Assembly: GCA_015680685.1 (NCBI GenBank)
Contig: MNCI01003051.1
Location: 381,984-445,983 of the forward strand
Direction: 5' to 3'
Length of the DNA: 64,000 nt
Source: Gnetum montanum
Lineage: Eukaryota > Plantae > Gnetophyta
Under the pieces are notes generated by a model. That model was not told where the DNA came from, did no database searches, and saw only the letters and a list, made by a program, of their open reading frames with translations. Below are positions 6,711 to 42,324 of the stretch, one piece after another; within the stretch, counting starts at the first letter, position 1, and each line of letters opens with the position of its first letter. The translations under genes were made by a program, and so were the position numbers.

Positions 6711-6949
6711 AACATAGACATATGTTAAGCTCTCAATTTGTTCCATGCAAAGTGTGCTGTTGTTAGGATTAGCTGTCAACCACTGGGTTCCCTCCTATTT
6801 TGTGGTTGTTGCATATAGGTACCTTTGAATCTCTATCTTGTCTACACACTGTCTGCATGTTGTGATTGATGTACTTTTTATGGCTCATAGTTTGTGCACA
6901 TAGTTGCACCATGTGTCATTGTACATGATGCATAGAACTCTCTTCTTCT

Positions 6950-9368: not shown

Positions 9369-9373
9369 ATCAT

Positions 9374-14700: not shown

Positions 14701-15183
14701 CACATGTCATTGTTAGGGGCACAATTACTATAGCTTTTGTAGCAGGGGAGCAATTCCCCAATTCTGCCAAGTTCATTGTCATAGAAGAGATGTTGGGCTT
14801 CAAATTGATATTGGGTAGACCTTAGCTGGCCCAATTATGAGCTATCTCCTCTCTAATTCATTAAGAGATCCACCTCCCATATGAAAGTGGTGAAGTTATC
14901 ATCCGTGCTGATAATGTCGCTCCCTTAGCCATCAATAACGTAGATATGGAGCAAGGGTCGAAGGTTGAGTTTTCTAATGATGCATCTATAGCAAAGAACA
15001 AGATACATGAAGTAAGTACAACTAAAAGAGTGGTAGAAGCTAGTGACCTCCCAAAGGATGCCCTTTAGGCATAAATGCCCTTTGACGTAGCAAGAAAAGA
15101 TCAAGGGGATTACCGAATAGTGCAATCCAAATCTTATGCACCTCCTAATCCACATTGAGTTAGGAAGAAACTAAATGACTAAG
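11701..15183 (+). pseudogene. gag: gag and protease of B, decayed
   Basis: ORF 12349-12816 is Retrotrans_gag-like (FSKNNGEGDSNAYLVTF...ISSLEDFLNQFVMHF). ORF 14583-14825 is protease-like (QVDDGAVANVI...LILGRP). Confidence 0.88.
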
Positions 15184-15344
15184 GTATCCCCTTAGTCCAA
15201 AATGTGCTAGGTGCTTGCCTGCTATTCGCTTTCACACACCTTATGTTGCATTTTTTTTGTATTATATTAGCATTGTAGTATGTTATTTGCATTTAGCTTG
15301 ATTACTCAGATTATTCATGCAAGGTTGCACGCATTTGAAAGATT

Positions 15345-15730
15345 ATTTTGGAGAAAATGAGCCTTGTACATGTTCTGTCAATTAAAAGTATGTCCTCCTA
15401 GTAGGATGTATGTAGAGCCTATTGTATAGGGTTCTAGTTTTGCTAGATTATCCATGCCTATTAGTAAGTCATAAAATTTTATTTCATAATGAAAAACATC
15501 TAATACTAATATTCTATTATCTGTAGTTTTGATAGGAAGTTTAGCTTTTTATTCCATGGGCATCTTTTATGTATTGAAAGAAAAATATATTTTTTCTTTC
15601 TTTTCCCATAAGTATGGAATAACTTCCCATCTGCCTAAAGATACTTTTGCTCCACTATCTATTAATGCATCTATGGGATACTATCTAATATAATGTATTT
15701 TAATAGAAAATGTACATATGGGTAATGAAG
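15345..15730 (-). pseudogene. Caulimovirid aspartic protease
   Basis: DALIDSGA (15648-15671) and DLLIGMD (15450-15470). The frame ends shortly after. Confidence 0.85.
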
Positions 15731-16479
15731 TTTCTCTTTTATTATTGTTAATTTGGTTGACAAGCATGGCTTGTGTTTCTTCTTGATATTTCTATCTCTG
15801 ATAACTTTCTCCTATTTCTTCTAATATAGCTAGTTCATTAGAGGTCCATTGTATGTATTTCCTTAATTAAGTGATCTACTGGGTTCTAAGGAAAGATTCA
15901 TCAAGAAGAGGGATTTGTTCCTATGTTTTTTTTCCTACAAACCTTTCAAAGTTTTCATCTTCCCTTCTATTTCTTCTCTTTCTATTTTTAGTTTTGCTTC
16001 CTCATCTTATTCTATGGTTTGAGAGTCAAGGTACTTGTGCCATTGTTCTTCTATTGCATATCTTTGTTCATCTAACTCTCTTTGTTTGTCCTTTATCCAT
16101 TGTTTAAGAGACATGATCCTATTGATATTGTTTATTGGTTATTCTTCTAACTATTCTTGTAGATGTTGTAATTGGGATTTAATAATCTTATATATGGGAT
16201 CATGTTCTATAGGATCTAGCTGGCTATCAAAAGATTGTTCAAACTTTGTGGGTTCTTGTGGAGGTGGAAGTGTTTGTTGTGTGAGACACGTGTTCATGTT
16301 GCAGTAATAATATGCATAAGAGTCACTACTGTGCTCATTTTCCCTGGGGAGAAAATAAAGATCATTATCACTAACCTCATAATCAGAATATTCATTAGAC
16401 TCAAGGAGGATATCACTAGGTTCAAAAGGAACCATATCATCATTTAAAAACTCATATTATTGTTTAGAAAGATTATGGT

Positions 16480-17450
16480 GTTCAATAAAATTAACACGTT
16501 GACTATGTTTCTCTTTATTAGAACAATTGCGAGCAAAGTGATTACCTTGGCAAACAAAACACTTGACTTGTCCTTTGGGAAGTTTTTGCTTATGACGTTT
16601 GAACATACCTCTAAAGATACATTGGGGTTTATCATCTAATTTCTTTTGCCATTGCCTATGTCTGTAAGGTCTTCTATATTTAGGATCCTTATTTTTATTT
16701 TTGTATGGTTTCTGACAACAACACTTTTCTTGCCAAGCTGGTTTTAACTACTTATGTTCAGGACATACAGAGGCATAGAAAGACTTTTCTAATTATTTAT
16801 TAATCTACTTGATAGTAGATTGGGTACTAAGGTCATGATAGAGATCATGGTTTACATCATTGATAAGTTGGACAATGTAGCTAGAGCTAACATCATCCAA
16901 AGTTCTATTGCAATATTTTAATTCTTGTAAATATTTTTCTTCAAGTAGAGAAGGTATTGCTCCTATGAGATGTTCCTTAGCAGATTTGTCATGGGTTAAC
17001 TTTCCTCTATAATACCAGTCTTCCATTTGAGACGAGAACTCATTAGTATCCTAAATACGTTGTAACGTAGCATTGAAAAAATGTTCTCTACATGTTGTAA
17101 TATAATTATCTTTATGACCTATGAATTTTTTAGTATAGCATTTATAAAAAACATAGAAGGTCCATCTAATAATTTTTTCTTTATGTCAGCATCTCTTTGA
17201 TTTCACCATCTTCTAAGATTTCATGTGAAATTAAATACAGCATTTTGGAGAGCATTTTTCATGGATTTTTTGTCTAGCACTACTTGCCTATCTATGAAAC
17301 CTATGATCTTATCTAAAACTTGTTGTCTCTATGCAAATGTATAGTTATCCATGGAGAATCATGGTTCTCTTTCATTAAGAGGCCTAGAAGAGATTGCTTA
17401 GTACTCTTGAGGATTGTGAGTATACATTTCTAGATTTCTTAAAATATTTT
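16480..17450 (-). pseudogene. Caulimovirid capsid protein with zinc knuckle
   Basis: Helical MEDWYYR...HLIGAIPSLL region, basic patch, CFVCQGNHFARNC at 16523-16561, followed by an acidic stretch (ESNEYSDYEVSDND). Confidence 0.75.
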
Positions 17451-18559
17451 CTTCTTTAGAATCTAGTTTACTCTCAAAGTCTACAATCATGGATTTGGAT
17501 TCTTCATTTGCATGAATTTTATCCTTTTCCTTGTGTTCCTTGATAAATCTATGTCTAGGTTAGGTATGGCGAGATGTGTGTTGGGATGTTAGAGAATCAA
17601 TGTTTGTTTCCCACTTAGGTATTTCATACTTAGGAGGAGGAGAGTCAAGCTTAGGTTTAGGTCTTGAAGTAGTAGATTTCTTAGGAACCCATTGTTGTTC
17701 TATGGTCCTTAGTTTAGAATTCATGGCCAACATTCGCTGATTCATTCTATCATTGTGCTTATGGATTACCATCATATCTCCAATCATTACACTAATCTTA
17801 TAATTCATCCAATTTTGAAGTCTAATAGTGTTAGAAGGTGGATCTATACTCATTTTTTGAAATAAGCCATGGGCTTGTTCAAACTTTTGTTTTTGAGATT
17901 CCTTCTCTTGAAACTTATTTTCACCTTTTGTGTTGGTACTTACTTAGCAATTCATGCCAATTGTTAATAACTGATCACACTTAGAGCAATGATATTATGT
18001 GTCATATTTTATGACTAATGTGTGAGGATAGGAACTGATGGAAGTTATTTTAGATTCATTGTATGAGACCTTTCTTAGTTATTTTGTCAGAATCTATTTT
18101 CCTTTATTTATTTTTGTTAAAGTGGCATGAGATGGTTCAGGGGCTTTTCCTAAGGTTTTGTTTATATCATAAGAGATCCCTAATTCCTTAAAGATCCTTG
18201 TTAATCTTTCTTCTTGTGTTTCTATTTCAAGTAAGTCTGTTTGTGGAAGAACAAAAGATTTTCTAGAAGGGATTAACTTGGAAGGATTCTTTATGGGAGG
18301 AAGAATTCATTTGTTGGATTCTCCCATTTCTAGGAATGGATCTATATTTATGAATATAGGAGTTTTGAGATTTACATGATAAGTTTTTCTTTCTAGATTA
18401 TGACATGACTTCTTAGGTACCATGTGTTTATAAAATTCCTCAATTATGTCATCTAATTGAGGGTATAGGGTAGGAATAGGCACATCTTTGATGTTAATGG
18501 TTAATCCATATTCAATATTCTTGGTGCCACAGAAGATAATATGTTCATCAAATGATAAT

Positions 18560-19050
18560 AGTGTCATTATACTAACAGTCTAAAAAAGCTTAAAAATTAA
18601 GCAAGTACCTATTGTAGCATACACGCTAGCTACTTTCATATCTAAAGGAATGTAAGCAATAATCACTAAACTATTATGTAAATGATGGTCCCTGAATGAT
18701 AGAGTAAAGTTGGGAAGTGTAACTACTAGTGTGTTAGATTCAAGATAGCCCTTTGCCTAAGTGATAATGGCATCTTATAACTTCTTGAATCTTCAATCTA
18801 CTAGTGCAAGCCAGTAGGGGCTCTTTAGGCAATAATTAAAGTGAGGATGGATATGTATATAAAGTTTAACGATATGTATATAATTATATTAAGCTTGAAT
18901 CCACTTCCTAACCTCTTCTCCTAAGAAAAAAGAAAGAGTGACGGGTCAAAGAACAAAGCCACTAATTTCTAATTTGCATTTAGAAAAATGCATAGATGTA
19001 ATGTATTCAATAGGATTAAGCTTCTTGAGAGGATAAATCTCTCATTGTCA
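18560..19050 (-). pseudogene. Caulimovirid 30K-family movement protein
   Basis: YNYIHIVKLYIHIHPHF...WLALVD*RFKKL*DAII...LPNFTLSFRDHHLHNSL, matching the YIHIG / LxDxR / PNFxxSLxD motifs. Confidence 0.88.
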
Positions 19051-19270
19051 AGGGATACGTGGCATAGTGGAACATCTTGAGGTACTACAAAAAGTAGAAA
19101 TGTGACGAGCATAAGGAGCAGGAGAACTTAATAAAGCATGGGTTCCGATCATTTCTTGCAATGAAGAAGTATACTATTATAGTTGCACATCTTACATGCC
19201 TCATGTCAGTTCTTACTGTGTGCCTTACACCTCCGATGACTCTGTGACTTTGCTGCAAAATCATGTCTCT

Positions 19271-19420
19271 AATACCAACTCTTTCCTAGATCGTTCATTC
19301 CATATGCTCACTCTTGTTCAAAGAAAAAGTAGATCATTCATTCCTTATACTCACTCTTGCTTCAATACCAACTCTTACCTAGATCATTCATTTCTTATGC
19401 TCACTCTTGTTCAAAGCAAA
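19271..19420. repeat. Short tandem duplication at the viral leader (3 copies of a 30-bp core, 2 PBS-like copies)
   Basis: tagatc(a/g)ttcatt..tat(g/a)ctcactcttg at 19287, 19330 and 19380; aataccaactc at 19271 and 19364. Confidence 0.85.
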
Positions 19421-19436
19421 AGCAATATAAACTAAA

Positions 19437-20665
19437 TGTAGCGACTAAAAACATCAAAGGCTGGAATAGTGCACCAAGAGATCTGTAGTTGCACAGCCTT
19501 GACCCTACTTCTGCATGAGGGCCTACTGGGAATGAAGGCATGCTGCCTAGAACTAGGACTTACGTGTGTTATGACGAAATGAATATTAAGGATTTGCACA
19601 ATATTTTGCAATGTCCATTGTGCCCATGGATGTGAGTGCAGTTGAGGTTTTGGGTGCAAAAATGAGGGCGCAAACACATGAATATGTGTGAGAATAATGA
19701 AAAATGCAAGTGAAATACTAAAATGTAGGAGAAAATGCAAACAATGTGTAAAGTGTAAGTGAGAGAGAAAGTGGCACCACCCAAAATGGGGGGAAGCATA
19801 GTTAACTACAAAGAAAAGGTATGGAGGTACACAATGTACAAATAGGTGCAGTAGGTAGCATAGTCACAATCTTAGGGTATCTGGTTGTGAAGAACTAATG
19901 TCTACCATGGATTCTAAGCTTGATGGGTTAGCTACCATGATGTCCTACAAGTTGCGGTGGTGTATAATGCGCTGGGTGGTGTACATTGGTGTTAGGTAGT
20001 GTCTCAAAGTTCACCAAGATGCCAAGTGTGCTCAAGTGCAAGAGTGCCTAGAGTGCCAATGCTCAAATTTGCCAACTAGATGTGAGATTTTCCAACCCTA
20101 AAATGTGAAGAATTGGGGTATTTATAAGGCTAAGGTTAGCATGAGTCACAGATCAAGTTCCATGTGGTAGAGGGGTAGTTGGGACTACATTATCCCCAAC
20201 TACACTCTCACTGAAGCAAATGGTGTTCTACTAGTGTGCTCTGATGGACCTTGTGAAACTACCAAACTATGATTACGTTGCCAAGACTACATGTGTGAGT
20301 ACTAGCAAATCACAATGTACCTAAAACAATGCAAAATAATGTAGTTTTGGAGACTACGCTTTACGACTACGCTGTCCACTCTCTCGAGTGGTGTCAAGCA
20401 TAGGTATAATTCAAGAGAAAATAGGAGATGTAAATGAAATGAAAATTGCTGATCTTGCTTGCTGATGGAATGTTGGAGCTGAGATGTAGGCTAGTGTTGC
20501 ATTCTGAAGGCTTTTGAAGGTAGTTTCAGTAGACTACATTGACTATGCTCTAGAGCGTAGTCCCAAGAGTTAGATAAATTTTATCAAAAAATGTGTTTCA
20601 ATGCAGACTACGTTGACTATGCTTTGGAGCATAGTCCTAGCAAGGAAAGCATAGCCTTAACACTT
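19437..20665 (-). repeat. 3' LTR of C (U3 end, PPT and part of the 3'UTR deleted)
   Basis: Aligns with 36472-37700 only, then jumps into the 3'UTR tandem array. Confidence 0.88.
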
Positions 20666-20682
20666 GTGTGTTGAACTGTGAA

Positions 20683-21025
20683 CCTAGTTTAAGGTCTTGG
20701 TAGATCATGATGTGCTAGTTTATAGTCCTAGTAGATTTTTGTGCACTAGTTTAACATTGTAGCAAATGGTGAATGTTATGCCAATTTAATGTCATGACAC
20801 AAGAAGGAGTTGTGCCAATTTATAGTCATAGTGGACTTTGTTGTGCAAATTTATAGTCATAGCAGACTATGTTGTGCTAGTTTATAATTTTTGTGGATTT
20901 TGATGTGCTAGTTTATAGTCATAGTGAACTATGTTGTGTTAGTTTATAGTCATAGCAGACTATGTTGTGCTAGTTTATAGTTGTAGCAGACTTTGTTGTG
21001 CCAGTTATAATCATAGTAGACTTTT
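20683..21025 (-). repeat. ~31-bp tandem array in the 3'UTR of C
   Basis: Repeated ctagtttatagtcatagcagactatgttgtg units. Confidence 0.88.
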
Positions 21026-21057
21026 GCTTACCTTGCTTCATAGAGATGTGACATTGC

Positions 21058-24000: not shown

Positions 24001-24415
24001 TCTACTTGACTGGTTTTATGTTGGGATCAAAGATTATGTTTTTGTTGCACTACACAAGGATCCAGGCTTGGCATGTCTTCGTAAGACCATATGAATGCCT
24101 TGATGTTATCGTTAAGTAATTTTGTGACGTTTTGGGCATGTTGAGGCTCTAATAAAGAACTAAGTTCCAATGTTTTTACCTCACCACTAGACATTGCTAT
24201 AGGGACTTCAACAAGGGGATCCTTGATGATGTTACTTGCCTCTAGATTTAGAAACCTAACTAGATGGTTTGACCAATCTAGCAATGCCTCTACAAATGTT
24301 CAAGGTCTAGGCATTATGGATTGATGCATCATGTTAGACTACCATGTGGTGTGGTGAGGACTAGGGGTAAATGAAGATTCTTGTACATAGACATGTTGTG
24401 AATCCTGAAATAATC
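21058..24415 (-). pseudogene. pol: pol of C (RT, RH, aRH, INT)
   Basis: ORF 23327-23689 MMPFGLRNAGATYQ...YIDD...LRLNPKKCVF, collinear with the pol of B. Confidence 0.95.
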
Positions 24416-24852
24416 TTGCAAAAACAACCAGAAAAATGTCAATTAATACTTGTCTTCATGAGAGCAATATGCATAGTTAAAGAAAATAATGCAATAAAAT
24501 TTTGCCTAAGTATGCAAAGATAAGGGACACAGGGCTAGATTTAGGCCTTGGCCAACCATGGGGTTGCTATTTTAAGGACTTAGTAGACTATTTGATGCTA
24601 GTTTAACATCGTAGCAAATAGTGATATGTGCTAAATGAATCATTGGAACAATGTTTGGTGCATCAAAAAAGCGAAAATAGCTCGGGCGCCCACTGGGCAA
24701 CAAGAAAAAATTCAAAATTTTTCTAAGTCCAGAGACAGCTAGAAAAATCAAAAAAAATTTCTAACTATAGTAACTACGCTCACACACAGCTACACTCGAC
24801 ACTTTTGAGTGTAGTCCTAAGGTAGGTAAAAAATTTAAGTGGTCCCTAGGGG

Positions 24853-27800
24853 TATAAAAGAACATTTTACCCTTTGTAAATTTGTCATTGTTAATGGTGA
24901 AAATGCAACTTTCTAGAGCGTAGCGCGGTTGCAAGAGCATATTCGCCAAAATGTCAAGTTGAAGTGGCTGCCAACACCTTGGTTTGACCGACATGGATGA
25001 GGCAAAGCAAGTCCTAGGACACCTACCTCAAGCACGCATACAGGAGCAGAGGGTGCCACCATCTACCAAGTACCCTAACTACGCTCTACCGTCTTTTTCA
25101 TTTTTTGGTGCTTTTCTTGCATTTAGGTGTTTGGGGCTTGGGTTTTGGCAGCTTGCTATGGTAGGGACCACTGTAGCTATAGTCATTGTGGCCTTGCAGT
25201 AGGGGAGGATGCATGCATGATGTGAAGGGTTTTTCCATTTGTGATTATTTTTTGGATGACCAGTTTTGCTACCATGCAGGTGGACCATAGAAGGGAAAAT
25301 AGTGGTTAGGGCATGAATGGTATTAGTGGATAGGCCAAGGACTAGCTTATGGTGCATGGCATAGGGATTTGCCCTACATTTTTTTGTAAAAATTTTGTCT
25401 ATCTTCTTCTTTGTTTTTGCATGGTGATGAGGGAAGTAGGGGTCTGGAATTTGATGGTAGTGATGGCGACGAGGGGTTGCCACTCATGGGGTTTAAGGGC
25501 ATGGTAGAGCGTGTCTAAAAATTTTCTATTTTTTAGCCAGTCCTTTTTTTCTTTTGTCTTTTGCATGGGTGGGGCAAGGCATCGATTGTAGCTGAGATGG
25601 CTTGTCATAGGGTAGGATGCACCAAGGGTGATCCTACCATTTTTCTTTTGTTTTCTAAAAAAAATTGATGAGTGAAGTAGTGAGCAGTGTGTGGTAGGGA
25701 TATGCATGAGACCATGGGGTGACTACACCCCACAGTATGGTTAGGGGCCGCAGGAAGAAAGAGATGGTCTTGGAACTAGTTACATTACATTTTCTTATGT
25801 GTTGCAAGTGAGGGTGAGGGTTTGAGGGCCACTGGGGGGTGCTCAGAACTAAGGTAGCATTGTTGGGGTGGGTAGCGATGGCTGTGAGATCCGTGGCCAT
25901 GGCTAGTGCTTCGGTGTGTAGGGTATGGTCTTGGTGGCGGTGGGTGATATAGTAGAGCACCACGTGGTAAGGAAGAGAGTGTTGGGATGACAACCAAACC
26001 TTGATTCACTTGTCACAACTAAGACTACACTCCTGTCTTGAAGGCACAATTGATGCAAAGTGTCTACAAAAATGGCTCGTCCAACAGTTAGTATTTTGGA
26101 TAATCTATGAGGTACGTAGCTAGGAGTTAGAAAAATTTTAGACAATCTTGGACTCTACTTTGTAGTGTTCAGGAGCATAGTCGGTGTCAACTAGAGTTAG
26201 AAAAGTTTGTAAATTTCCAAACTATGCTCTTAAGGGTAGTGCAGAGTTAGAATTTTCTCATGCGGTTTCTAGGAAACACCTTTAGAGAGAATCTAGAGCT
26301 AGAATATTTGCGACTACTTTGGACTATGTTGCCTAGAGTTAGAAAAAATTTGAAAAATTTTGCTAGATGTAAAAATGCGAACAATGTTAAAAACTATGAT
26401 AATGACAAATTTTCAAATCAAAACAATGACAGACTGCTAAAACATGCAAATGAAGATAATGCAAAATGTGCACACATGAAAAATGAAATGCTAATACTAT
26501 GCTAACATGCTATACCCCAATGAGTACTGGGTGCATTAAATGTATGTGTTAACGTTTCATACCCATGGGGCCCAAGGGGTCCTAGGATATTTTTTGCTAC
26601 ATCACATTAATTTCTTGCTAAGTTTAATTTAATGTATTTTTGCAAAAATGCATCTATTGTATACTAATGCCACATTTATCATTTTTGCAATTGCAGGGTG
26701 TTGCTAAAGCCCATCTTAGTCATTGTGGAGCTTATTGGCATTCTTTGTTACATGAGCAAGCCTATACCCAACATGCCTACATTAGATATGTGGATGGGTT
26801 AGCAGGTAGTATGGTTTTGGCCTGGGGCATTCAAGTTCCTAGCATAAATGCTACAACATTTCAATGTGATTATGTTGTCACACTTAATAGTGGAGGCTAT
26901 AGGTGCTATCATAGAGATATTACTACCTAGGGCTTAGTGGGACATATTGAAATTTATGTTCAATAAGCCCACGTCCGATGATGACATAGCAAGTAATTCA
27001 AGGTGAGGCCCCAAGGACACTCATCCCTTATTAAGGATGAGGAAAAGATGCTTGCCTTGATCCAAAGTGCCCTAGAGGTGTTCTTCTCTAGTCTAAAATT
27101 TTGAGAGGTTGTACTTGAGTAGATGGAAAATGATCTAAAGAATTACTCCACCAAGTCCTTGAAGGTGTTCCAGTAGTGCAAGTCCTATGGTTGGCTTAAT
27201 GAGGGGTGAGCTAATGGTGTGTCCAATTTCAAGGAGATAGTTGCACCACCACATTCATTTCACATACTATTTGTTCCATGTAAGTGTTTATGTATTTGGC
27301 TTTTATGCTTGTTCACATGCACTCATTAATTTTCCCTTACCTAATTTTATCATTTGTTTGCCTATGTTGCAGCTATAGTTGCTTCAAGAGAGGTGACGGT
27401 GATCACCACAAGCTGCAATGAGGCTACCCTCATCATGAAGTATCGTAATGTAGAGGGGACATAGCATTGGTTGTGCCATCAAGCCTTAGAGGTGTTGACC
27501 AATCAGCTCACACATGCTAGGTTGATGGACCTTTTCTTAGCCCTTAGCCTAAGCATTATAGTGGTTGAAATGGTTACCATTGTAGACTCCTTTAGTAGCG
27601 ATGCCTATAGCAATGTACACAGAGTGAGGGTAATCTTGGACCTCAATGATACCTTCTTTTTTGACCTCTTTAGCCTTCCCTCCAATGGCTTGTTGGTCAT
27701 TGACAAGGCCAACAAAGAGGTGGACCACAAAGGAAAGATTGAGGAGTGGCTAGGAACCATCCAATATCACAAAACCATCATGATTAGATACATGCTTGTG

Positions 27801-30800
27801 CTTGAGGTCCATGAGATCTACTCTCTTTTTTATGCCCATGCCTTTTCAAAGTTGCTCTCCCAAGGAAAAATCCTTGGGGTGGAGCAGGTGCGGGTAATGA
27901 GGAAGGTACTAGAGGAGGGCATGAGGTTCAACTGGGCCTCCTACATTGTCACCAAGCTACAAGTAAAGATCACCAGACTTCACTATAATCTCCAGGCAAG
28001 GTCTCATGTACACTTCACATTCTTTGTAGCGTATCTATAAAGGTTCATGGAGTTTCTGGTGGTTTGAGATAGTAGGCATTGGGTAGTGCAAGATTGTGAG
28101 TAGTTGTCCAAGCCTTGGATCAAGCACTTGTTTGCAATCACTTGCATGTAAGACATCCTAGAGGGGATTAATGAGTTGTACTTGATTACAGCCAAAGGTC
28201 ATCTAGGGCTATCATGATCACATTATTCTCGTGATAATAAGGGCGAGTGTCCCCCAATTATTATTGGGGATATGAACAAGGCCAATTTTTATATTATGAA
28301 AATGGTCAAGTCTTCTAAGGCAAAGATTAGGAGGCCACACCTGGTAGAGGAGGCTACCCCTACGGTTGGATAGGCTGGCACCAAGAAAATCTGCCTCAAG
28401 ATACCCACTTTGCGCATAGATGTTGTAGGTTAGTATGCATATAGATGCATTTGTTTTACATATTTTCTATTAATGTTTTCATGTTTTCTTATTATGTCAT
28501 GCTGATGCTACTATGCTATGTTTGTAAGCTAGGCAAGAGGGTTTTCGAAGTAGCAATGGTGGCAATAGTAGAGATGGCCCCTCCTAAATTTGAGGAGGAT
28601 GAGGCACATAGAGAGGAGCTACATGAGGCCATAGAGACCTTCTAGTGATTTGATGCAAAGGGGCTATTCCACCCTGATGAGGGTGATTTTGCCAACCTCT
28701 TTGATGATGTGTGAAACACCACAAAATTTTGGGTCTTGGCATCTCGACTAAAATTTTGGCTAAGTGTAAAAATGGTGGCACTTTGTCCAAATTTTTCTAA
28801 GTGTTGAGTGTAGTCAGCTCCAATTACCAGTTTTACAAAATTTTTTCTAACTACTGAGTTACGTGTCTTGCACGTAACATGGGACAAGTGTAGCAAATAG
28901 TAGAAATTTTTCTAAGTGTTGTGCTAGAATCTAAAGCGTAGCTAGCATGAGACACCAATTTTGCAAAATTTTGTCTAACTACTAAGTTACGTGTCCTGCA
29001 CGTAATACAGGGCAAGTGTTGTGCTACATTCCCATTGCCCTGCTATGCTCTAGAGTGTAAATAGTGTAGCCAGCATGAGACACCAATTTTATTTTTAACT
29101 ACTAAGTTATGCATCCCTGGTGTAACAAGGGGTGAGTGTAGCAGCCAAAGTTAGAAAAATTTTCAAACTTTTTCTGGTCACCTCTAGACTTAGAAAATTT
29201 TCTAAATTTTTTTTGTAGTCCCACCTACCGCACTGCTACATGGCACCTAATCTACATTTTGGATTAACCCTAGTCTCATAAATACCCCTAGACCCTAATG
29301 TTTTAGGGGTTGGGGGCTTCCATTTTTTAGGTGGTTAGTAGTTGGCACTTTCATTTGGCATTTGGCATTTACACATCTTGGAACTTAACTCTGTGGGCAA
29401 ATGAAACCCAGAGCACACCACACTAGCAGAGAGGCATAGTTGCACCACATGGTACACCATGGCCCCACTACAACCGTACATTGCATAGCACACTATAGCC
29501 CCATTGTAGCCCTACACCACATGGTACACTACAGCCCCATTTCAGCTCTATAGAACACTACACAGTACACCACAATAGCCAACCCAACAGGCACAGTTCA
29601 TCACGACAAGCACCAAACTTCATGCCCTGACACCACCGAGATTGTGACTATGCTCCCATTGTGCCTATTGTACATTGTGTACCTTCTAAGATCCTTTTGG
29701 AGTTAACTACGCTCCCATTTGGGGTAGTGTTTCATTTCTCTCCCCCATTTTGTAGCATTTTCTTACATTTTTCTTGCATCTTTCTACACTTTTTCATGCA
29801 TCATTACGTTGTACTACACTCAGGCAATAGTCTCTATGGGTTAACACCCTCATTTTAATCGAAACCCTTAGCTATGCTCACCCCCATTTCATGGCTATGC
29901 TCTACACTTAGCACTACAAAACACCGCTTTGACACTTAGCACCATTTCACATTGTTTACACTTGCATTTCGGCTAACCATGCCACCCTTGAATTGCATCC
30001 ATAGCCTTGATTGCAACCAACAAAGTACCGATTCAATTGATAAGACCGTTTAGGGTGCTTTGCCTTTGTTTCTAGCATGGCCTTCATGTGAAGGTGGGGT
30101 TAAGGTTGTGCATCTATTGACCCCTCAGTGATTCTAGCGACTGATGTTTTCGGTTGTTACAGTATGCAGCTAGGAGATCCCCCTTCTCTCACACCTAAGG
30201 GCTTACTTGGTAAGTGCTTTAAGTTGCCATATATTGTTGCTTTTTTGATCTTGCATATTTTCTTATTTGATTGTTACTAAGTATTATTGTTATGTAGCCT
30301 TAGATGCACTTGCCAATGGTCCACCACCCATGCTTACCTACCACATGAAGTTGTGGGTAGAGACACTAAACAAGTTTGCCTTCATGGAAGGCATCGTTGA
30401 GGATATGGTAGATTGCATACAATAGGTAGATCCTGAGCTCGGTATGCATGTTGTTATTTTGCTTATGTTGCTTTACCTATTTTATGATTAGTTTGTGGCC
30501 AATTATTGATTTTCTTGCATGTATGCCAATAGGTTCTAAGCTCTGCTAGGATCCGAACCAAGTGGCTAAGGTGGATGCCATCCCCGAGTACCGTCCTAAA
30601 GTGGAGTAAGTACCTCATTGTGTGTATGAGGTAGTTAACAAGTGCATACTTTTCTATGAAAAAGCATTATGAAGCTACATGTGCTCAAATGAGCACCTAT
30701 GGAAATGCCTACACAAGCTTCAGGAGACTGTGGTGAGCTAGAACACAAAGATTAAGGACCTCCAATCCTGATATGATTTCTTATCAGCTCAAGCATGGGG

Positions 30801-31530
30801 AGATAATACTTAGCAGACCACAAAGATCAATTATGCCAAGTATTGAATGAGGTCATCCAAGAGATCATCAAGTAGAGGCTATAGATGAACCTGCTTACCC
30901 AGAAGGGCTAGACTTGGAAAAATTTCAACACTAAGGTGTGCAAGTGGGGGCACATGTAGAAAGATCACAAATGCCACTATAAGCATGAGTGAGATGCATA
31001 TCTATAGCAACTCAAGGAAGAGTCCGTCAAGGCCCACTACATAGAGATGTTCGTTGAGGTGATTGGTGGAAGTTGAGCCTTCAAGATATTTTCTCACCAC
31101 ACAGTGGTTAGTGACTCCCTAGAGCAGAAGATTACCATGCCTTCAAGGGAGGCTTCATCTACTACCTTTTCTATGTAGTTGCTTGCATAGACCATCATGA
31201 ACGAAGACAAGAGCCTTGTAAATGTTGACCTCAGCTAAGAGGATTGGACGTGGCTATCAAAGGTTAAGATCCTTCGATGCTTGGAAGAAAGCCTTGATAA
31301 CTTGCCTCCAAACATGGCTAATGCGGGATCCTCTCAAGTTAGTTTTTTCTTGCTTTTTTTGTGCTTTTTTTAAGGTTGCATATTGTGCTCTTGCTTATAG
31401 ATTTCTATTATTGTTATTATTGATAAGCACTAGGTGATGCTACTAACCCTAGCAACATAACATAAGAAGAGGAGTCTCCACCTCCACCTAGTGCCATTGG
31501 TTAAGCAGATCCTGATGTAGCCCTATCATT
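24853..31530 (+). pseudogene. Spliced antisense accessory gene of C (PMD/Transposase_32-like plus coiled coil). Exons ~24880-25069, 26697-27279, 27373-28428, 28533-28711+30167-30209, 30298-30441, 30533-31337, and a probable last exon from ~31434
   Basis: TATAAAA at 24853. Four consecutive ~90-100-nt GT-AG introns are all phase 1 and preserve one reading frame. ORF 27471-28040 carries an FNWASYIVTKL motif. The frame also continues across the solo LTR. Confidence 0.8.
28712..30161 (+). repeat. Solo LTR of a B/C-related Tat family
   Basis: TGAAACACC...GGTTGTTACA termini as in the B LTRs, no PBS or PPT, degenerate TSD ATGTG/GTATG. Confidence 0.85.
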
Positions 31531-31714
31531 GGAAATTTTTGTATTTTTGCATATTTTTGGTATGTAATGCAGATGATCATGAGATGTATTATTATTTTTC
31601 TATGAGATGAAATAGAAATTTTTCTACATGAAGTATGTGATGAGTAGACCTTTATATTTATTCATTATGTGTTTAATGTTAATGATGCGATGAGTTTATG
31701 TAATTGGGCTATAG

Positions 31715-32100
31715 AAATTGCTAGTTTAAGGCCATTCCAAGCCATGAGATAGTGAAAAAATTTTGCCAGGTTTAGGACCATGGCAAGCCATGTATTAGTT
31801 TAAGGCCATCTGAGGTCACATGGTGGAAGAGAGATTACTAGTTTTAGGCCATGGTGGATCACGTAGTAGTTTAAGGCCTTTTCAGATCACAAGATGCTAG
31901 TTTTAGGTCATGGTGGGCCATGTGATGTCAGTTTAGGGCCATGGTAGGCTGCATGTTAATTTCAGGCCATTCTGGGCAATGTGATAAAAGGGGAGATTGG
32001 ACTACCAATTTTAGGGCATGGCAGGTCATGCAATAGTTGAAGGCCTTTTTGGGCCATCCATTGAAGGGAAAAAGATTGCCAATTTTAGGCCTTAGCAAGC
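31715..32100 (+). repeat. Degenerate tandem array (agttt(t/a)aggcc core) in the PR-RT spacer of C
   Basis: About ten repeats of gttt(a/t)aggccat-like cores. Confidence 0.75.
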
Positions 32101-32365
32101 AATAGTGTTTTGTAATTTTTGAATTTGATGATTTTTTAGGCATTTTGCTATTTTTTATGTGTAAACTAACTACTAAAAAGTAATCAATCAAAAATGTAAA
32201 CTTAGCAAAAATGCACAAACATGAGAAATAAATGCATAAAGAGGCAAATAATGTAAAAAATGTAAACAATTTTAAACTAACATAAAATGCAACCAAAATG
32301 CAAATAGGAAAAGCATGCAAAGTGGGGTAGGAAAGGATCCAATGCCTATTGAACTAAGGAAATGC

Positions 32366-35300
32366 CTTAGCTGTGTAGTTGTTTCCTAATATGGTGTGGG
32401 TTGGGGGGCACATAAGGCCTGGAGGGTACAATATGGTATTTTCCCTAACCTTCGTCAATTATGTCAAAGGGTAATTCTTCCCACAAAGCATCTTTTGAAA
32501 GGTCAGGGACTCTCATTGGATCTTCACGTTGGTCTACCTCACATTTTTTGCTTTATCCTTCATGAAAGATGTGTCATCAAGGAATTCCACCTTTGACCCT
32601 TGTTTGATGTTAATGTTGCTAACAGTTAGAGGGGTTGCATTGTCACCATTTATGATAACCTTTCCACCTTCATATCGAAGGTGGATTTCCAGATGGATTG
32701 GGGAGGAGACAGCCTATAGCTGGGCTAGCCAAGGCCTACCCAAGATCAAGTTGACACTTAGCATCTCCTCAACCACTATGAATTCAACAGTGATGGGGAA
32801 TTGCTCCCCTACCATGAAGGCTATCATGACAATTTTCCTTATGACAACACACAACCCATTGAAGCACTTAAGGCATGTTGTCTTTGCTAATTTAATTTGA
32901 TCAACAAGACCAAGCTTGTCAACAACTATGTACAAGATGACATTGGTTGTTACCCCATCATCAATATGCACCTTGCGAATTCTGCATTCTTCCACGTGGA
33001 TGGTGATGAACATTGGCATGATAATAACTTAACCCTTCTCAGGGTTCACCTTGATTTCCACATCATGAAACACTAGGGGAATTAAACTTAATTCTTGTGG
33101 GGGAGAAGGCAACATAATAGCATGAATGGACTATTCGTCTGGTAGGATGTCCTCTGTGATAGGAATGGACATCAACATGCATACTAACACTTCACAGTGG
33201 GTGGAGGAAGTCATTATGAGATCGTACAAGCTTAATGTTGTATTTTTTTATTTTAGAGCATGCTTGACTTGTGCCAATGCATCAAGGAAGTCTTTTCTAC
33301 TATCTACTACCTTGTTGTTAGTGGCCTTCATCTCCTCCATGAAACCTAAGAGATGAATCTCTTGTGTAGGGGATTTGGGCCTTGCTTGCCTTATTTGCTT
33401 TGGAGACTTAGTGCTCTGTTGTGGGTTACTTATTGCAGTGGCCTCCTTAGTTGGTTGGGCCATTGGGATAGAAGATAAGAAAACATGCTTTGGTGGGCCT
33501 AGTACCCTTTGCTCTAAATTTTGCCTAAGCATTTGATTAGTGAGGCATTTGTTGGGCCTCTTGGATTGTCATCTTGATTGCTTGTTGGTATTGGCTATAG
33601 GATGAGGCTTTGGGCAAGTAGGTACTGATGCATTTCCCACCACTAGACTCCCAATAGGCAGGGAGTTTGCATGTTGTGACACCCTTACAACAAAGGATGT
33701 CTGGGCTGTTGTAGTTGCAACATGCTGTGGGGCCCTGACCACAAAGGGTATTATAGACATCTAAGGTAATACTCTAATAACAAAAGGGGTTCTTAGACTA
33801 GTTGATGTCGAAGAGGCCCCAACATTGCCAGAGGGCACATGAACCACAAATGGTCTCTACATTGGTTCTAAGTCATCATCAATGTTGATGGCATTAATGA
33901 TGTACCCTACACCACTTGTGTTGAGAGGATCCTTGTAAACCCCCATTGACTAGTTCTAGGGATGCACTGGGTTGGTAGCTTCAAGGACCAACTCACCCTT
34001 GTGAATCATGCATTGTATATCATCATGCAATGCCATGCAAAAGTCTATGTCGTGACCTTACAAATGGTGATATTGGAAAAACCTATCCAACCTAAAATGC
34101 TTAGGGACTAGGGGCTCGTTTGGTAGTGCAACTGAAGGATTCTTGAGGAGTTTGCAATATCAGTCATACCACTTATGAGCATCCTCAGACATCTAGTTAT
34201 ATTGGATGCATCCAGCATAAAGCAGTTGGTCCAGAAGCTCTAACTATTTAATGGGCAACTGTGTGTACTTCAAAAGATCCTTACACTCAAAGTTAGGCCT
34301 TGTGGCAACTGGTGTAGTGGTCATGAATGATGCAAGCTGGTTGTTTGCTGCTATGCTAGAGCTAGTCGCCTTGTTGTTGTTGGCCTTGGGTGGCTTGGTC
34401 ATCAGTTTGGTGTTGGCTAGCTTAGCCTTGTTGGCCACCATCGCATGGTTGTGGTTACTTACTTACATTTGTCCTTGCCTTTTCTTTCTTCACATGTAGG
34501 TTTTTGTAGGCCACATAGGCCAGATCCTTGCTAACCTTCACTACATCTTGAATGCTCTTATTTTGAGCAAACACTTGACTCAGGGATTGTGGGACAAGGT
34601 AATACAGTTTTGACTTGATGAATTCATTTACTACACCTTTGAAGATGGCTAGAAGGTGTGTTTTTGTGATGGGCTCATAGATCACATTGAGTGATGCACT
34701 CCATTGCTGAATGAGTTTTTGCATGAGCTCTAAGTGGCCTTGCTTAACTTGCATTAGCTAATCTAGGGTCACCTTAGGATTTAAGTTGTACTTGAAGCAT
34801 GCGACAAATTGGGTAAGAAATTCCTCCAAAGAAGTAATGGAGGCCCTGGGGAGCATCTGATACCAACCTAGTGCCTTGCTAGTCAGAGACATGGTGAACA
34901 CATAGATGATAGCATTTAGCCATGCTTGCAATAGAAGGAATTCTGACTAGAATGTCACTAGATGGACGTTTGGGTCTTCTTCACCATTGTATTTGGTGAA
35001 CTGGGGTAGTGGGACCTTGGTAGGCAATGTCAGTGGTGGGACTATAGGATTGATTGGATCATCCTAGTATAAGTCCATCACATGGATGATTTCAGAGGAG
35101 GCAACCTTGAGCCACTTGACCTCTTCGGTAAGGCTTTGAATTAGTTGAAACTCTTGATTCAAGCTGGGTGAAATTGCAATGGGTTGCATTGGTTGAGCTA
35201 CCTGCTATTGTTGTTAGGTGGTCCATGACCTAAATCTAGGTTGTGTGACCACATGTGATGCCTACTGCATGGGCTGTGCCATGGGCACAACACCTTGGCC

Positions 35301-35800
35301 CAACCACGAGTTTGTGGGTTAGGTCATCGTAAAAGGGTGTCGACACGACATGTGAGATGAATGATGCCTAAGTTTTGTATAGGAGGAGGAATGTGCATGG
35401 TGTGCACATAGGATTACGTAGGTGCAATGGTTGCTACTACAAAAGGCTGGATGGACTAAACAAGCTAAATGAGTTGGACAGACTGGATAGGCTGCAAAGG
35501 GATGATGAAGAGAATGCTAAAGGAAAAGCTAAAAGGTAGAGCACCATCTTGGTGCATCTGCTATGTTTGGTGAGTTGCCATCATAGGTGTTGACCTAGGT
35601 GATGACACTAGGCTATGGAACATTAAAGGAGTGAAAGTAGAGGTTGTCTACTAGAATGAGGCATGGAATGAGTCATCATGCTCAGATTGAGCCTCAAACT
35701 CATTCATCTCCTTCTAGAGGGGATCCTCATAGTCCATCCCTACCTCACAACCCATGTTGTGAATGAGGTTATCCAGCATCCACTAGAAGTCTTTCATGAG
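32366..35800 (-). pseudogene. gag: gag and protease of C
   Basis: ORFs 34455-34754 and 32714-33019 (VHIDDGVTTNVI...LILGRPWLAQL) are homologous to B. Confidence 0.9.
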
Positions 35801-36471
35801 TAGGATAAAGTCAAAATCAGAAGGGAACCATTCCCTTCCATTACGATGCATGAGCTCATAACTACATTGAACGTTCATTTCTTAGTAGTCTAAGGGCAAA
35901 CCCACCTTGAGTTTTGTGCAAACAAAGTTGTATTACTTTTTGTTGAGCACCATGACCTTAGGAGGCAAGGTATGTTGCTTGAAACATTGCCTCTATGTAA
36001 GGATAGGATCCCCAGCCCCTAGAAGGTTAATTAGGATCTCCCTCTAACCAAGCTAGATAACAATTGCGCTCAAAGTAGAAGTTGAAGGCTACTTGGGATT
36101 CATGGTGCAAGGAGAAATGCAAAAGGTTGTTGATGCAAAAGATAAGAGAAAAATGGCTAAGTGCAAAAATGTAAAAAAAAATGACTAAGTTTGAAATGTA
36201 GAGAAAAATGACTAAGTGTAAACACGTTGAAAAATAACTAACTCTGGGATGATGCTCAGAGCCTACTACACATGCTATGCTAGAGCTAGCTATGCTTTGT
36301 TAAGTAACTAGAATTTAGCTAAGTGTAAACACTTTGGTGTTGTTAAATGAGGTTCTAGGGGAATTGATAATGGGGACCAATTTGCACAAGGTGCAAAGAG
36401 CATGCAAGGTAACTACCAAGGGATGGCCAAAGAAGGAAATGGTGAAGGCCCTCCTTCTAGCACTAGAAAAT

Positions 36472-38117
36472 TGTAGCGACCAAAAATGTCAAAGGCTAGA
36501 ATGGTGCACCGATAGGTCTATGGTTACACAACCTTGACCCTGCTTCTACACCAGGGCCTACTAGGAATGAAGGCAGGGTGCCCAAAATGGTCTTGTTGAT
36601 CAAACTAGGACTTACGAGTGTTACAATGAAATGAATGTTAAGGGTTTGCATAGTGTTTTGCGATGTCCACAGTGCTCATGGGGGTGAGCATAGTTAAGGT
36701 TTTGAGCATGAAAATGAGGCTGCAAATACATGAATATATGTGAGTAGAATACTAAATGTAGGAGAAAATGCAAAACAGGCATAGAGTATGAGTAAGAGAG
36801 AAAGTAGCACCACCCCAAATGTGGGGGAGCGTAGTTAACTATAAAGAAAAGTTAAGGCGGTATGCGATGTACAAATAGGCATAGTAGGCAATGTAGTCAT
36901 AGTCTTAGGGTGTTTGATTGCAAAGAATTGACATATGTTATGGAGTCTGAGCTTGTTGGGTTGGCTGCCATGATTTCGTACAAGCTGCGATGGTGTATAA
37001 TGCATTGGTTTGTATACAATGGTGTCAGGTGGTATCTCAAAGTTTGCCAAGATGCTAAGTGTGCTTAAGTGTAAGAGTGCCCAAAATGCCAATGCTTAAA
37101 TTTTCCAACTAAATGTGAGATTTTCCAACCCATAAAACATGAAGCATTAGGGTATTTATAGGGCTAGGATTAGTGTGAGTCGCGGATTGAGTGCCACATG
37201 GCAGAGGGGTAGTTAGGACTATGCTAGTCCCAACTATGCTCCCACTAAAGTAAATGGTGTTCTGCTGGTGTACTTTGATGGACCCTATAAGGCTACCAGA
37301 TTGTGACTACACTACCAAGACTACATTTGCAAGTGCCAAACATATCACAATGTACTTGAAACAATGCAAAATAATGCAGTTTTGGAGACTATTCTTTGGG
37401 AATACACTATTCACTCTCTCGAGTGGTGTCGAGCATAACTACAATTCAAGGGAAAATGGGGGGTGCAAATGAAATGCAAATTGTTGATCTTACTTTCTAA
37501 GAAAATGTTGGAGCTAAGATGTAGACCGGTGTTGCATTCTAAAGGCTTCTAAAGGTAGTTTCAACAAACTATGTTGACTATGCTGTAGAGTGTAGTCCCA
37601 AGAGTTAGACAAATTTTGCCAAAAAACATGTTTCAGTGCAGACTACACTAACTATGCTCTGGAGTGTGGTCCCAACTAGGAAAGCATAACCTTGACACTT
37701 AGGAAAATCTAGCAAAAATTGATGTCTTTGTGTAGACTACGCTCTAGAGCATTGTAGGGAGCGTAGTGCTAGAAGTTAGAAAATCTGTAGGTACTATATC
37801 TTCCATCCCAAGCCAACTTGACAACCTAACACATAGGAAAATTTGCAAAACTAGTTATTTTTGTGCTAACTATGCTCTAGGGCATAGTCTTAGTAGGGAG
37901 AGTGTAGTCAGGACACTTAGAAAATTTTGCAATTGTTGTTGACACTTAGAAAAATCTTGCAAATTTGGGCTATCTGTGTCAACTACATTAACTACATTCC
38001 GAAATGTAGTCCCAATAGTGGGAAGCATAGTCTCAACACTTACAAAAATTTGTCAATTTTTAACACTTAGATAAATCTGCAGTTGAGACCCAGTGACTCG
38101 AATTTGATGGTGTTTCA
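36472..38117 (-). repeat. 5' LTR of C
   Basis: Minus TGAAACACC...GCTACA, adjacent to the PBS TAGTGCTAGAAGGAGG. Confidence 0.92.
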
Positions 38118-38191
38118 CTAAACCCCTCAAAAAAGCAAATAAAAAAATAAAAAAGAGAAATAGAAGCAAAGGGGAGAGCATAGTCACCATA

Positions 38192-38535
38192 CTTGGTTGA
38201 TGTAGATGACCTCCTCTCCTCCACGCACACCTACAGTAGGTGGCTCAGTGCCCTCTTCCCTTCAACGATGTTCAAAAACCCTAGATGAAGGTGTGCACTT
38301 TGGCGTGTCATCTTTTCTTGCAACTACACTCTCAACTGGTGGTTAAAGGTAGTGGCAACAACAAGACTACACTCTCCACATTATGATAAATGTAGAAATA
38401 ATGAATTTATAGTAGTAAAAATGCATTTATATACTATTTTAGGATTATTAATGATCCACCAACCTAAGACTATGCTCAACACCAAGCACCCTACTACTGA
38501 GCGTGGAGATCATAGTTGGGTGAGAGCGTAGTCAA
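38192..38535 (-). promoter_or_regulatory. Antisense promoter and exon 1 of B (homologue of C 24770-25070)
   Basis: TATATAAA at 38426-38433, GAGCGTAGTC-like motifs, and donor CCAA|GTATGG at 38192 matching C's CCAA|GTACCC at 25070. Confidence 0.65.
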
Positions 38536-38797
38536 CCATCTTACGTCCAAAACCTTGATCTTTTGTTGTTCTACAAACACACAAGTTAATTCTACTCCCC
38601 AAGCATCTGTAGTTTGCTGAGGCCTAAAACTAACATGCATATGACTTGCTAGGGCCTAAAATTAGCACAAACATGTTTATCTCCCACAAAAATTTACACG
38701 CATGCCTAAGGAAATTTGATTCAATTTATTTTTTCATTCGTGCATATTAACTTTGTTAAACAAGTACCACTTGATGTTTTTCTAGTTTATTTTGCAG

Positions 38798-41700
38798 GAA
38801 CATGACATGGCTATGCATGAGCAGATCTTCTCACCTTTGGTCCTCACAAGGACTTATGGCAACATTGAGCAATGCATTGACCCTCATTGCCTAGACCTCA
38901 GGCCTATAGCCTAAAATGAGTACATAGCATCTATAGACACACCACTAGACTAGCTCAACCATCTAGTTAAGGCTCTCAACCTAGAGGCAAGGGATGTCAC
39001 AGAGGACCCCCTTGTTGAGATCCCTGTGGCAACACATAATAGTGAGGCAAGAACACTAAAACTAAGTTCTTTTCTAGAACCCTAGCATGCTCAAGACATT
39101 GCTAAAGTACTTAACAATAACATCGAAGCATTTTCATGGTCATACAACGACATGCCAAGCCTAGATCCCTAGCTAGTCCAACATAACATCATCCTTGATC
39201 CCTGCATCAAACCAATTAAGTAGAAAGCACACAAGGTTAGACCTGAGGTGGTGTTGGTAGTCTATGATGAAATTACCAAGCTTTAAAAGGCTAGTTTCAT
39301 CTGAGTTGTTGACTATGTAGACTAGGTCTTCAACATCATGATTATGCCTAAGAAAAATGGAAGTATACACATTTTCATGGACTTTTAGGACCTACACGAG
39401 ACAATCATCAAAGATGACTTCCCACTACGCAGTCTCAAATAGCTAATCAATATCAGGGTTGGACATGCCTTGTTGTCCTTTGTGGATGGGTTCTCAAGCT
39501 ATAACCAAATTAGGATCAACCTTGAGCATTAGCTCAATATAATCTTCATGATCCCCTAGGGTACATTTTGCTACACAATGATGTCTTTTGGACTAAAGAA
39601 CGCAGGAGAAACATACCAACATGCAATGATGTACATTTTTAGTGATTACATGCTAAGTTTGCTCAATGAATCTATAGATGATATTACAGTTAAGTTCAAA
39701 GTGTCCCACAACCACCCAAATGACTTAGAATTAGTGCCTAAATGTTGCGTAAAACATGAGCTTAGGCTAAACCCCAAGAAGTGTGTTTTTTGCGTTAGAA
39801 TGGGTAGGATGCTCAACTTTGTAGTATTTGAAGCAAGTATACATGTGGATCCTAACAAGGTTAAGGCCATAACTAACTTGGCACCATCAGTTAACCTTAA
39901 GGAGCTACAAGGGTTGCAAGGTAAAATACAATTCATACATAGGTTTATCACCTAGTTAACCAACAAGCTATAACCAATGTAAAATTTTCTCAAGAAAGGA
40001 GCCACTTCAAATGGATAGCTTAGTTCCAGCAAGTGTTGTACAAGATTAAGCAAGAGCTAGCACAACTACCTTCAGTTCATCCTCCATAAGGAGATAAGCC
40101 TTTTTACATCTACCTTGCCACTTCTGACACGTCCATCACTTCTCTACTTTGCCAAAAGCAAGATGACAACATAGAGGTCCCAGTTTACTACCTAAGCCAT
40201 GTATTAGTAGCCCATGAAACGAGATACAACAATGTGGAAATGTATTGTCTTTCCATGGTCTTCTCACTAAAGAAGTGGAGGCATTACCTCTTCCACAGCT
40301 AGGTTAACATCATTTAGAAGAACAATGTACTCTGAGCTATAACAATGAATGTCTATGAAAGCAATTGCATTGCATAGTGGAAAGCAATAATAGCAAAGTT
40401 TGACCTACATTATATCATGCAATAATAAAATGTCAAGCTATAGCCACACAACTCATGGCTTCATGAGTAGATGATCAAGCTACCATAGACCCTGAGTTCT
40501 CAGATGAGTATGTTAGCAATATTAGCCAAGTGCCCAATAACTATGAGGCACTCTTGCATTTTGATGGAGCTTCAACCTCTTAAGGGGGAGCGTTGTTGCT
40601 ATTATCACATTTCCCTCCAAGGAGATCCAACCATTCACATATAATTTTGCATTTCCTTGCACCAACAATGTGGTGGAGTATGAAGGTCTTCTTCGAGGCA
40701 TCCTTGTAGCATGCAACCTAGGGATCCAACGCATAGTGATCTGAGGTGATTCACAACTAGTGATCAATCAGGTAATAGAGGTTTATGCTTGCAAAGCATA
40801 ACATTTATAACCTTACTATGACCTAGAAAAACGCGTGCTCCAACACTTTGCAACTGCTAATGTCCAACATGTTCCCTAAAGTGAAAATTCCATTGCAAAC
40901 ATACTTGCAACATTATCCCTTAGCATAGCACCTAGCATGTTCAATGCATTACCCAGCTTGATGGCAAATTGCACTACACCTATCACACAAACCATTGAAG
41001 ATCCATCCATAGCCATAGTTAACACCACCCACGTAAAAGAGTGGTACGACAACATCAAGGCTTACCTTCTACAAGGTGAGCCTCCTTAACACTTAATTAC
41101 TACTCAAAAGGACATAGTACGCAAAAATTTATGGTAGTACCTCATCATAGGTGATAACATGTTATGTCACAAATCCCATGATGGCATACTACTAACCTAC
41201 ATAAGCAAAAATGAAGCAAAAGCAATCATTGAGCAAGTCCACGAAGGACTATGTAGAGGTCACATAGAGCCTAGGGCAATGGTAGCAAAAATTAGACAGC
41301 TAGGCTACTATTGGCCTTACATAAAGAGAAATTTCATCTATAAAGTCAAAACATGTGACACTTGTTAATAGCATAGTAACTTAATGCACATGCCACTAAC
41401 TGAATTACATATAACACAAATCATGTGATCATTCCAATGCAAGATCTTAGACATCATTGGACCCATAATGCCTAAGTCCTTCACAAGGCATAGCTTCATA
41501 ATAATTACAACAGAATATTTTACCAAGTGGGTTGAAGGTATTCCTTTTAGGAAGATGACATTGCAACAGGTTTACAAGTTTGTGTCAGACAACATATAAC
41601 CCGTTTCAGCTTACCCATGACCATAGTGACAGATAATGAACCACAGTTTAGTAGCATCGAAACCAAAGCCTTTTGTGAGCACTTTGGCATAAAACACTCC

Positions 41701-42277: not shown

Positions 42278-42324
42278 CATGCAACATTGCACATCAATGA
42301 ACTAAGGTGAGCACTCGTCCACTA

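Follow-up and report, generated by a model that had tools for sequence, protein, structure and literature searches.

A caulimovirid movement, capsid and protease fragment within an old Tat retrotransposon of Gnetum montanum: probably a single integration

Introduction

How a piece of pararetroviral genome comes to lie inside a retrotransposon, in the slot where a sister element carries an antisense gene, is the question raised by a 64,000-nucleotide stretch of Gnetum montanum DNA (GenBank assembly GCA_015680685.1, contig MNCI01003051.1, positions 381,984 to 445,983; hereafter the window, with positions counted from its first letter). The window is made up of a nest of old long terminal repeat (LTR) retrotransposons where only four stop-free frames of at least 150 aa remain. 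A preliminary description held that one of these, element B, reads as follows once the nested element C has been removed at its CTAAA target site duplication (TSD): gag and protease (PR); in antisense, a caulimovirid aspartic protease (AP), capsid protein (CP), movement protein (MP) and primer-binding site (PBS); the first exon and TATA box of an antisense gene; and finally reverse transcriptase (RT), RNase H (RH), additional RNase H (aRH) and integrase (INT). Pfam matches, collinearity with an intact viral polyprotein (P0001) and the TSDs all agree with this anatomy.

Two origins were put forward for this arrangement, a chimeric retrotransposon family that had captured a viral movement module and, more simply, a one-off integration accompanied by a deletion. 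The first is not supported by the data presented here, as the PBS-side junction is found near the depth of one locus and the gag-PR region at about ten times the depth of the virus. The second fits better, with the limits that 80% likeness and the coarse bins at the left junction place on the depth evidence, and we regard it as probable that a single caulimovirid integration took place inside a resident Tat element, B, with loss of about 5.6 kb. The distinction is of some consequence. As a one-off event the locus is a clean fossil of the entry of caulimovirid DNA into plant genomes within retrotransposons, and one in which the nested LTRs can be dated. If the junctions were multi-copy, it would represent an LTR retrotransposon with its integrase kept and a movement protein added from a virus, a kind of hybrid that has been proposed for the origin of the Caulimoviridae (PMC8256270). 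An amplified chimera in which the module was used would be a plant retroelement endowed with both an integrase and a plasmodesmal movement protein, a plant analogue of env capture.

A caulimovirid fragment without reverse transcriptase

P0001 is an intact 1768-aa MP-CP-AP-RT-RH polyprotein encoded on a Logan contig of 6 kb. Its residues 12-1272 are matched in collinear order by the minus strand of 15384-19113, over three frame blocks (E 6e-83, 2e-50 and 1e-29). Profile searches for the viral proteins gave a clear match for the MP (PF01107, E 1e-9, 38.7 bits against a cut-off of 23) and a weak one for the protease (RVP, E 0.052), and the CCHC knuckle of the capsid was recognised in the translation. 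A search of 1.84 billion protein representatives returned 11 at E <=0.001, the best being P0001 (E 2.5e-80, 34% identity over the MP-CP query) and the second Welwitschia mirabilis virus 2; with the CP region as query no long homolog was found at E 0.001 among 1667 candidates. The marks of an endogenous caulimovirid that are present comprise a 30K MP, a CCHC capsid followed by an aspartic protease, and a tRNA-Met PBS upstream of open reading frame (ORF) 1. The viral RT-RH, required for a complete genome and for assignment to a genus, is missing, and five caulimovirid proteins compared with the window had no matches beyond the Tat RTs of the two elements B and C (22-32%). As judged from its sequence, the caulimovirid stretch is a genome fragment that lacks RT-RH.

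In an RT tree of 26 rows, all of them retained, P0001 forms a group with one unnamed protein and one from Taxus chinensis (support 97/90), and Petunia vein clearing virus belongs to the clade in which this group falls (86/95). By proxy, via the RT of P0001, the virus of the window would thus be a clade B caulimovirid, a member of the single-ORF Petuvirus/Florendovirus/Gymnendovirus group (PMC5766536). P0001 has no close named relatives, its best RT identity being 54-55%, and it is possibly an undescribed virus lineage.

The ordinary MP-CP-AP-RT-RH layout of the closest relative among proteins counts in favour of a one-off integration. It also bears on the idea that the source was a non-autonomous caulimovirid already devoid of RT-RH, so that its end at the protease would be a feature of the virus rather than a break, and that it integrated once. 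RT-less pararetroviruses with MP, CP and PR exist as multi-copy fossils of grasses (PMC5491270) and the cut in the window coincides with a domain boundary. This source is nevertheless very unlikely, given the RT-RH of P0001 and the resumption of B-derived sequence about 35 nt past the end of the protease homology, which leaves no space for an extra viral domain or intergenic region.

The edges of the module and the slot it occupies

The presence in C of an antisense gene in the same PR-RT spacer and orientation was borne out by alignment of B 38131-38898 (-) with C 24303-25124 (+), which are collinear with a score of 134 where 200 shuffles gave a maximum of 48. By itself, the part containing exon 1 and the donor scores 67, a value reached in none of 500 shuffles, and the TATA part scores 33, reached in 2 of 500 and so weakly significant. 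The reading frame of exon 1 is conserved between B and C (BLOSUM 65, the other eight frame pairs giving <=31). The homology previously claimed for the TATA box (38426), exon 1 and splice donor (38192) of B is therefore sound; the donor itself is predicted only, and in C the frame stays open through the donor site.

At the left end of the slot B follows C up to about 15350. What is missing from B corresponds to 7.05 kb of the C spacer, in line with the deletion of about 7 kb first suggested; subtraction of a nested solo LTR (1.46 kb) brings the net figure down to about 5.6 kb. It had also been proposed that the module begins at the PBS and stops just after the protease. The stop was confirmed by the end of the homology to P0001. 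The start was not, since the PBS-side edge is not clean and a 59-nt unit is duplicated beyond the PBS, between it and C.

Misassembly had been named as a possible ground for dismissing the arrangement altogether. A contig from run X7 (organism C, from a separate study) covers 19092-19537, passing from the start of the MP through the PBS and TSD into the LTR of C with 12 differences in 446 positions and no gaps. This junction is therefore not an assembly error, and the PBS-to-C junction is present in a second organism. The insertion would then be common to at least two related organisms, and the insertions of both the virus and C would be older than the split of the organisms sampled. An artefactual joining of unrelated repeats could appeal to the N at 14414 inside the gag-PR of B, which marks an assembly join with about 70 nt duplicated on either side, and to the fact that the whole stretch is spanned by no contig. 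Both TSD pairs match, however, and both viral junctions are free of N, and together with the X7 contig this makes such an artefact extremely improbable.

Read depth across the junctions

Of the 21 runs listed, nine DNA runs contain the stretch or part of it, and these represent five coded organisms and three studies; no RNA run was listed as containing it. Four runs were mapped to 11500-21000 at 80% likeness, with about 77% of each of X1 and X7 being read (two organisms, two studies). Summed depth serves here as a relative index and not as a copy number, and sisters less than 80% alike are missed; a sister that had decayed as far as B would have a likeness of about 75-80%, so that such copies are partly missed. 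The left junction, between gag-PR and AP, was covered only by bins of 317 bases.

Across the gag-PR bins of B (12134-15303) summed depth is 3,167-19,376 in X1 and 1,934-18,046 in X7, whereas the viral bins (15304-19107) have 129-380 and 178-514 respectively. At the gag-PR/AP side itself the values fall from 3205 (X1) and 3495 (X7) in one bin to 343 and 363 in the next. By this index most relatives of B do not run on into the virus, and this drop of about tenfold implies that most of them are without the module. On the other side, the junction bin 19108-19424 has a depth of 57 in X1 and 37 in X7. By position, depth in X1 and X7 respectively is 111 and 81 at the start of the MP (19119), 20 and 21 at 19233, 30 and 28 at 19284, and 28 and 12 at 19423, the 24 contigs listed singly having depths of 3.9-17.8 and contigs of a single locus depths of 4-16. 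The PBS-side junction is thus not present in many copies (12-30 over 19233-19423 against 130-510 for the viral genes), with the proviso that older sisters could escape detection. At 19233 and 19423 all of the X7 contigs differ from the window and none of the X1 contigs does, so that at least one run is without a paralog there.

The virus does have relatives, about tens of them, that share the coding part but hardly the leader or the junction. They are 80-86% alike in coding sequence (six listed X1 and X7 pieces lying wholly in 16121-18121), and one more is 81% alike over 533 nt. Run X10 (organism F) contributed 10 pieces, all below 90%. At 15680-16059 an X7 contig of depth 479 omits 378 nt of the CP-AP linker, which points to a viral relative both shorter and more abundant. 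A poly(A) run, 26% of which was read, gave 118 reads, none at >=99%, seven at 95-99% and on both strands, from which nothing firm follows for this locus. No relatives were confirmed among viral contigs (30 and 123 pattern matches, with P0001 or alignment A1) or among metagenome contigs (602 pattern matches), both being weak searches for plant repeats.

These depths weigh most heavily on the proposal of an amplified Tat subfamily in which the antisense gene gave way to caulimovirid MP-CP-AP, placed under the antisense promoter, spliced in frame to exon 1, transposed with the element and used, for example, for cell-to-cell movement. The promoter, coding exon 1 and predicted donor are all kept in B, a predicted acceptor-like site lies in frame, the cut at the end of the protease is clean, and there are numerous viral relatives whose flanks are not visible. 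Sister copies made as one unit should, under neutral decay, have the coding part in common as well as the leader and junction, whereas depth declines from about 100 at the start of the MP to about 20 in the leader. The loss of depth past gag-PR, a viral frame as broken as its surroundings and the want of any such locus in the weak searches of viral and metagenome contigs all point the same way, and we consider this subfamily quite unlikely.

Decay and the order of events

All frames are heavily broken, with about three stops per 100 codons. Among codons at risk, stops number 33 of 104 in the virus, 63 of 162 in B and 50 of 160 in C; as these fractions are similar there is no sign of preservation of the viral frame. 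The two copies of the 59-nt unit differ at 5 of 59 positions where 11-12 differences would be expected from the LTR pairs (P 0.01-0.02), and windows as close as this are found in 0 of 1151 cases in the LTR of C and in 3% of 1450 in that of B. This is a weak hint that the duplication is younger than the insertions of both B and C.

Whether the virus arrived before or after C, one coincidence is required, because no more than about 10 nt separate the TSD of C from the duplicated unit. Alignment of the roughly 10 bases between the TSD and the unit with the intron of C was not significant, 36% of shuffles reaching its score.

Integration into a resident element or transposition of a chimera

Under the single integration that we favour, a 4-kb MP-CP-AP fragment would have entered, in antisense, the PR-RT spacer of a B copy already inserted. 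The cause was probably a single DNA-break repair event that at the same time deleted about 5.6 kb of the B antisense gene. Viral DNA opened at the PBS gap or close to it would have been used as filler, with the duplicated PBS-containing unit left as the scar of repair. Viral DNA tends to break at this gap. An antisense insert is not what template switching between RNAs packaged together would produce and, as the module is antisense to the genomic RNA of B, this is an unlikely route here and an event at the DNA level would be implied. The insertion of filler at double-strand breaks is a widely held model of caulimovirid integration, the other being retrotransposon-mediated integration (PMC10377300). 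The locus would then have been silenced, decaying without further movement, and the placement of the module behind the B antisense promoter would be an accident of where the deletion fell.

Several observations weigh against this explanation. The viral cut falls at the C-terminal boundary of the protease (P0001 aa 1272, the RT Pfam match beginning at 1390). The first acceptor-like site past the B donor is in frame with the MP; given five sites of this kind over 4047 nt, the rough post-hoc chance is about 4%. At 19284, beside the PBS, each run has about two further contigs. The fraction of stops in the virus cannot be told from that in B (P 0.24) or C (P 1.0), and the 59-nt unit was chosen by local alignment, which lowers its apparent divergence. 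Finally, the LTR ages of B and C are close (Kimura two-parameter (K2P) difference 0.031, with 8% of bootstraps <=0), so that, had the virus preceded C, it would have had only a brief interval in which to arrive.

The possibility to which several of these points lend weight is that the virus integrated, at the DNA level, into a parental B copy, after which the chimera transposed once or a few times with the module as passive cargo, as in the eBSGFV-type scenario proposed in banana (PMC10377300). B is complete with its TSD, the near-equal ages of B and C leave only a brief period for integration at a later date, the decay of the virus fits that of B, and the extra contigs near the PBS would be accommodated. 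Against it, depth is near that of one locus at 19233 and 19423 and the junction duplication seems younger than B, and we hold it to be rather unlikely. Transposed or amplified chimeras in all their forms together retain a sizeable minority share of the probability, on account of the cut at a domain boundary, the in-frame acceptor-like site and the close ages of B and C.

Elements B and C

The coordinates of all features are collected in Table 1. B and C both have LTRs, a PBS and a 5-bp TSD, and in both the Pfam matches follow the order RT-RH-aRH-INT with the additional RNase H of Tat elements (in B, 3' of 38800: RVT_1, RT_RNaseH, RVT_3 as the aRH, Integrase_H2C2 and rve), an order described as Tat structure 1 (PMC10508981). 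The four nearest long proteins share 36-38% identity. The gag-PR of B had no match in the Pfam search, and its assignment, which should be taken as putative, rests on homology to C and a protease-like motif in the translation. The B LTR pair is 78.5% identical over 1509 aligned columns (K2P 0.266, 95% 0.237-0.298) and that of C has a K2P of 0.235 (0.202-0.269). A repeat pair, 875-1654 and 46022-46810, brackets B yet has a K2P of 0.185, below both LTR pairs; the two are separate copies, or else the LTR clock is noisy in this place. Single Ns occur at 14414 and 62389.

Between gag-PR and RT (24390-32390 in C) this Tat lineage has a spacer of 6.5 kb with a multi-part antisense gene, of which coding exon 1 is conserved. 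The spacer has donor-like and acceptor-like ends, and the PR-RT intron of Ogre has comparable ones. The antisense frames of C had no match in the Pfam search. An open 191-aa piece of the gene at 27465-28040 (+), also without a Pfam match, gave a weak Atlas lead (0.88-0.89, below 0.9) to plant clusters with DUF1985 in 13-20% of members. The solo LTR at 28712-30161 (+) is nested inside this antisense gene and resembles the LTRs of B and C in patches (68-82%). At 20665-20681 the 3' LTR of C is without its first ~420 nt and the polypurine tract region, an internal deletion beside a 31-nt tandem array.

Table 1. Features of the viral module, its edges and the two retrotransposons (positions in the window)
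Feature	Position	Strand	Remarks
Caulimovirid movement protein and N-terminal capsid region	17128..19113	-	single frame with stops; PF01107 at 18658-18918
Caulimovirid capsid region	15887..17182	-	P0001 aa 683-1112, E 2e-50; CCHC zinc knuckle ~16520-16563
Caulimovirid aspartic protease	15384..15730	-	homology stops at protease C-terminus, viral RT not following
tRNA-Met primer-binding site, decayed	19267..19278	-	PBS form as in PMC13308828
59-nt unit, two copies ending in PBS start	19271-19329, 19364-19422	-	5 differences
First acceptor-like AG past B donor	19085..19086	-	in frame with MP; predicted only
Rest of B PR-RT spacer	15184..15350	+	homologous to C 32176-32370 (-), score 137 against shuffled maximum 48
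Coding part of B antisense exon 1	38193..38314	-	predicted donor GT at 38192
TATA-like box of B	38426..38433	-	homologous to C box at ~24855
Element B, Tat lineage Ty3/gypsy	9374-45320	+	flanked on both sides by TSD ATCAT
Left TSD of B, ATCAT	9369..9373	.	
5' LTR of B	9374..10915	+	LTR pair comparison
gag-protease of B, decayed (putative)	12320..15183	+	homology to C
RT-RH-aRH-INT of B, decayed	38801..42280	+	Pfam
3' LTR of B	43758..45320	+	LTR pair comparison
Right TSD of B, ATCAT	45321-45325		directly after 3' LTR
Element C, Tat, nested in B	38117 to 19437	-	antisense gene in PR-RT spacer
Left TSD of C, CTAAA	19432..19436	.	
Right TSD of C, CTAAA	38118..38122	.	

Comparison with known systems

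Literature searches whose coverage left most subscription journals outside found no LTR retrotransposon of plants that had captured a 30K MP, and two others surfaced no description of an antisense gene slot between PR and RT; passages of PMC13468544 mention neither antisense, spacer nor caulimovirid. Antisense accessory genes with their own promoter are known from the Tat elements Retand, Grande and RIRE2, but the antisense ORFs described are mostly located 3' of pol, before the 3' LTR, and according to the review are without similarity to viruses, whereas the slot in B and C is between PR and RT (PMC7264820, PMC6317226). The non-autonomous pararetroviruses eRTBVL2 and ePVCVL resemble the module in having MP, CP and PR in the absence of RT/RH, and differ in being multi-copy, in carrying an SFKTE domain and in having replicated as viruses, the module of the window being bounded on both sides by retrotransposon sequence (PMC5491270). 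In Hvu-EPRV of grasses caulimovirid genes are likewise bounded by long direct repeats, but the viral RT is present and integrase, TG..CA ends and a TSD are absent, so that it is not a retrotransposon chimera (bioRxiv 10.1101/2025.06.08.658526). The single-ORF caulimovirids of clade B, including P0001 and Welwitschia mirabilis virus 2, share with the module the PBS, short leader and one MP-CP-AP polyprotein frame; as the module is without RT-RH, its placement to genus is by proxy only. The closest parallel in arrangement is eBSGFV, which lies within a Ty3/gypsy retrotransposon of Musa balbisiana (Gayral et al. 2008, via PMC10377300). In both cases caulimovirid DNA is enclosed by a Ty3/gypsy element and the doubt between a chimera formed first and a two-step origin is shared (PMC10377300), but eBSGFV is a recent badnavirus locus, whereas the module in B is old, RT-less and fully decayed and occupies the place of an antisense accessory gene between the PR and RT of a Tat element.

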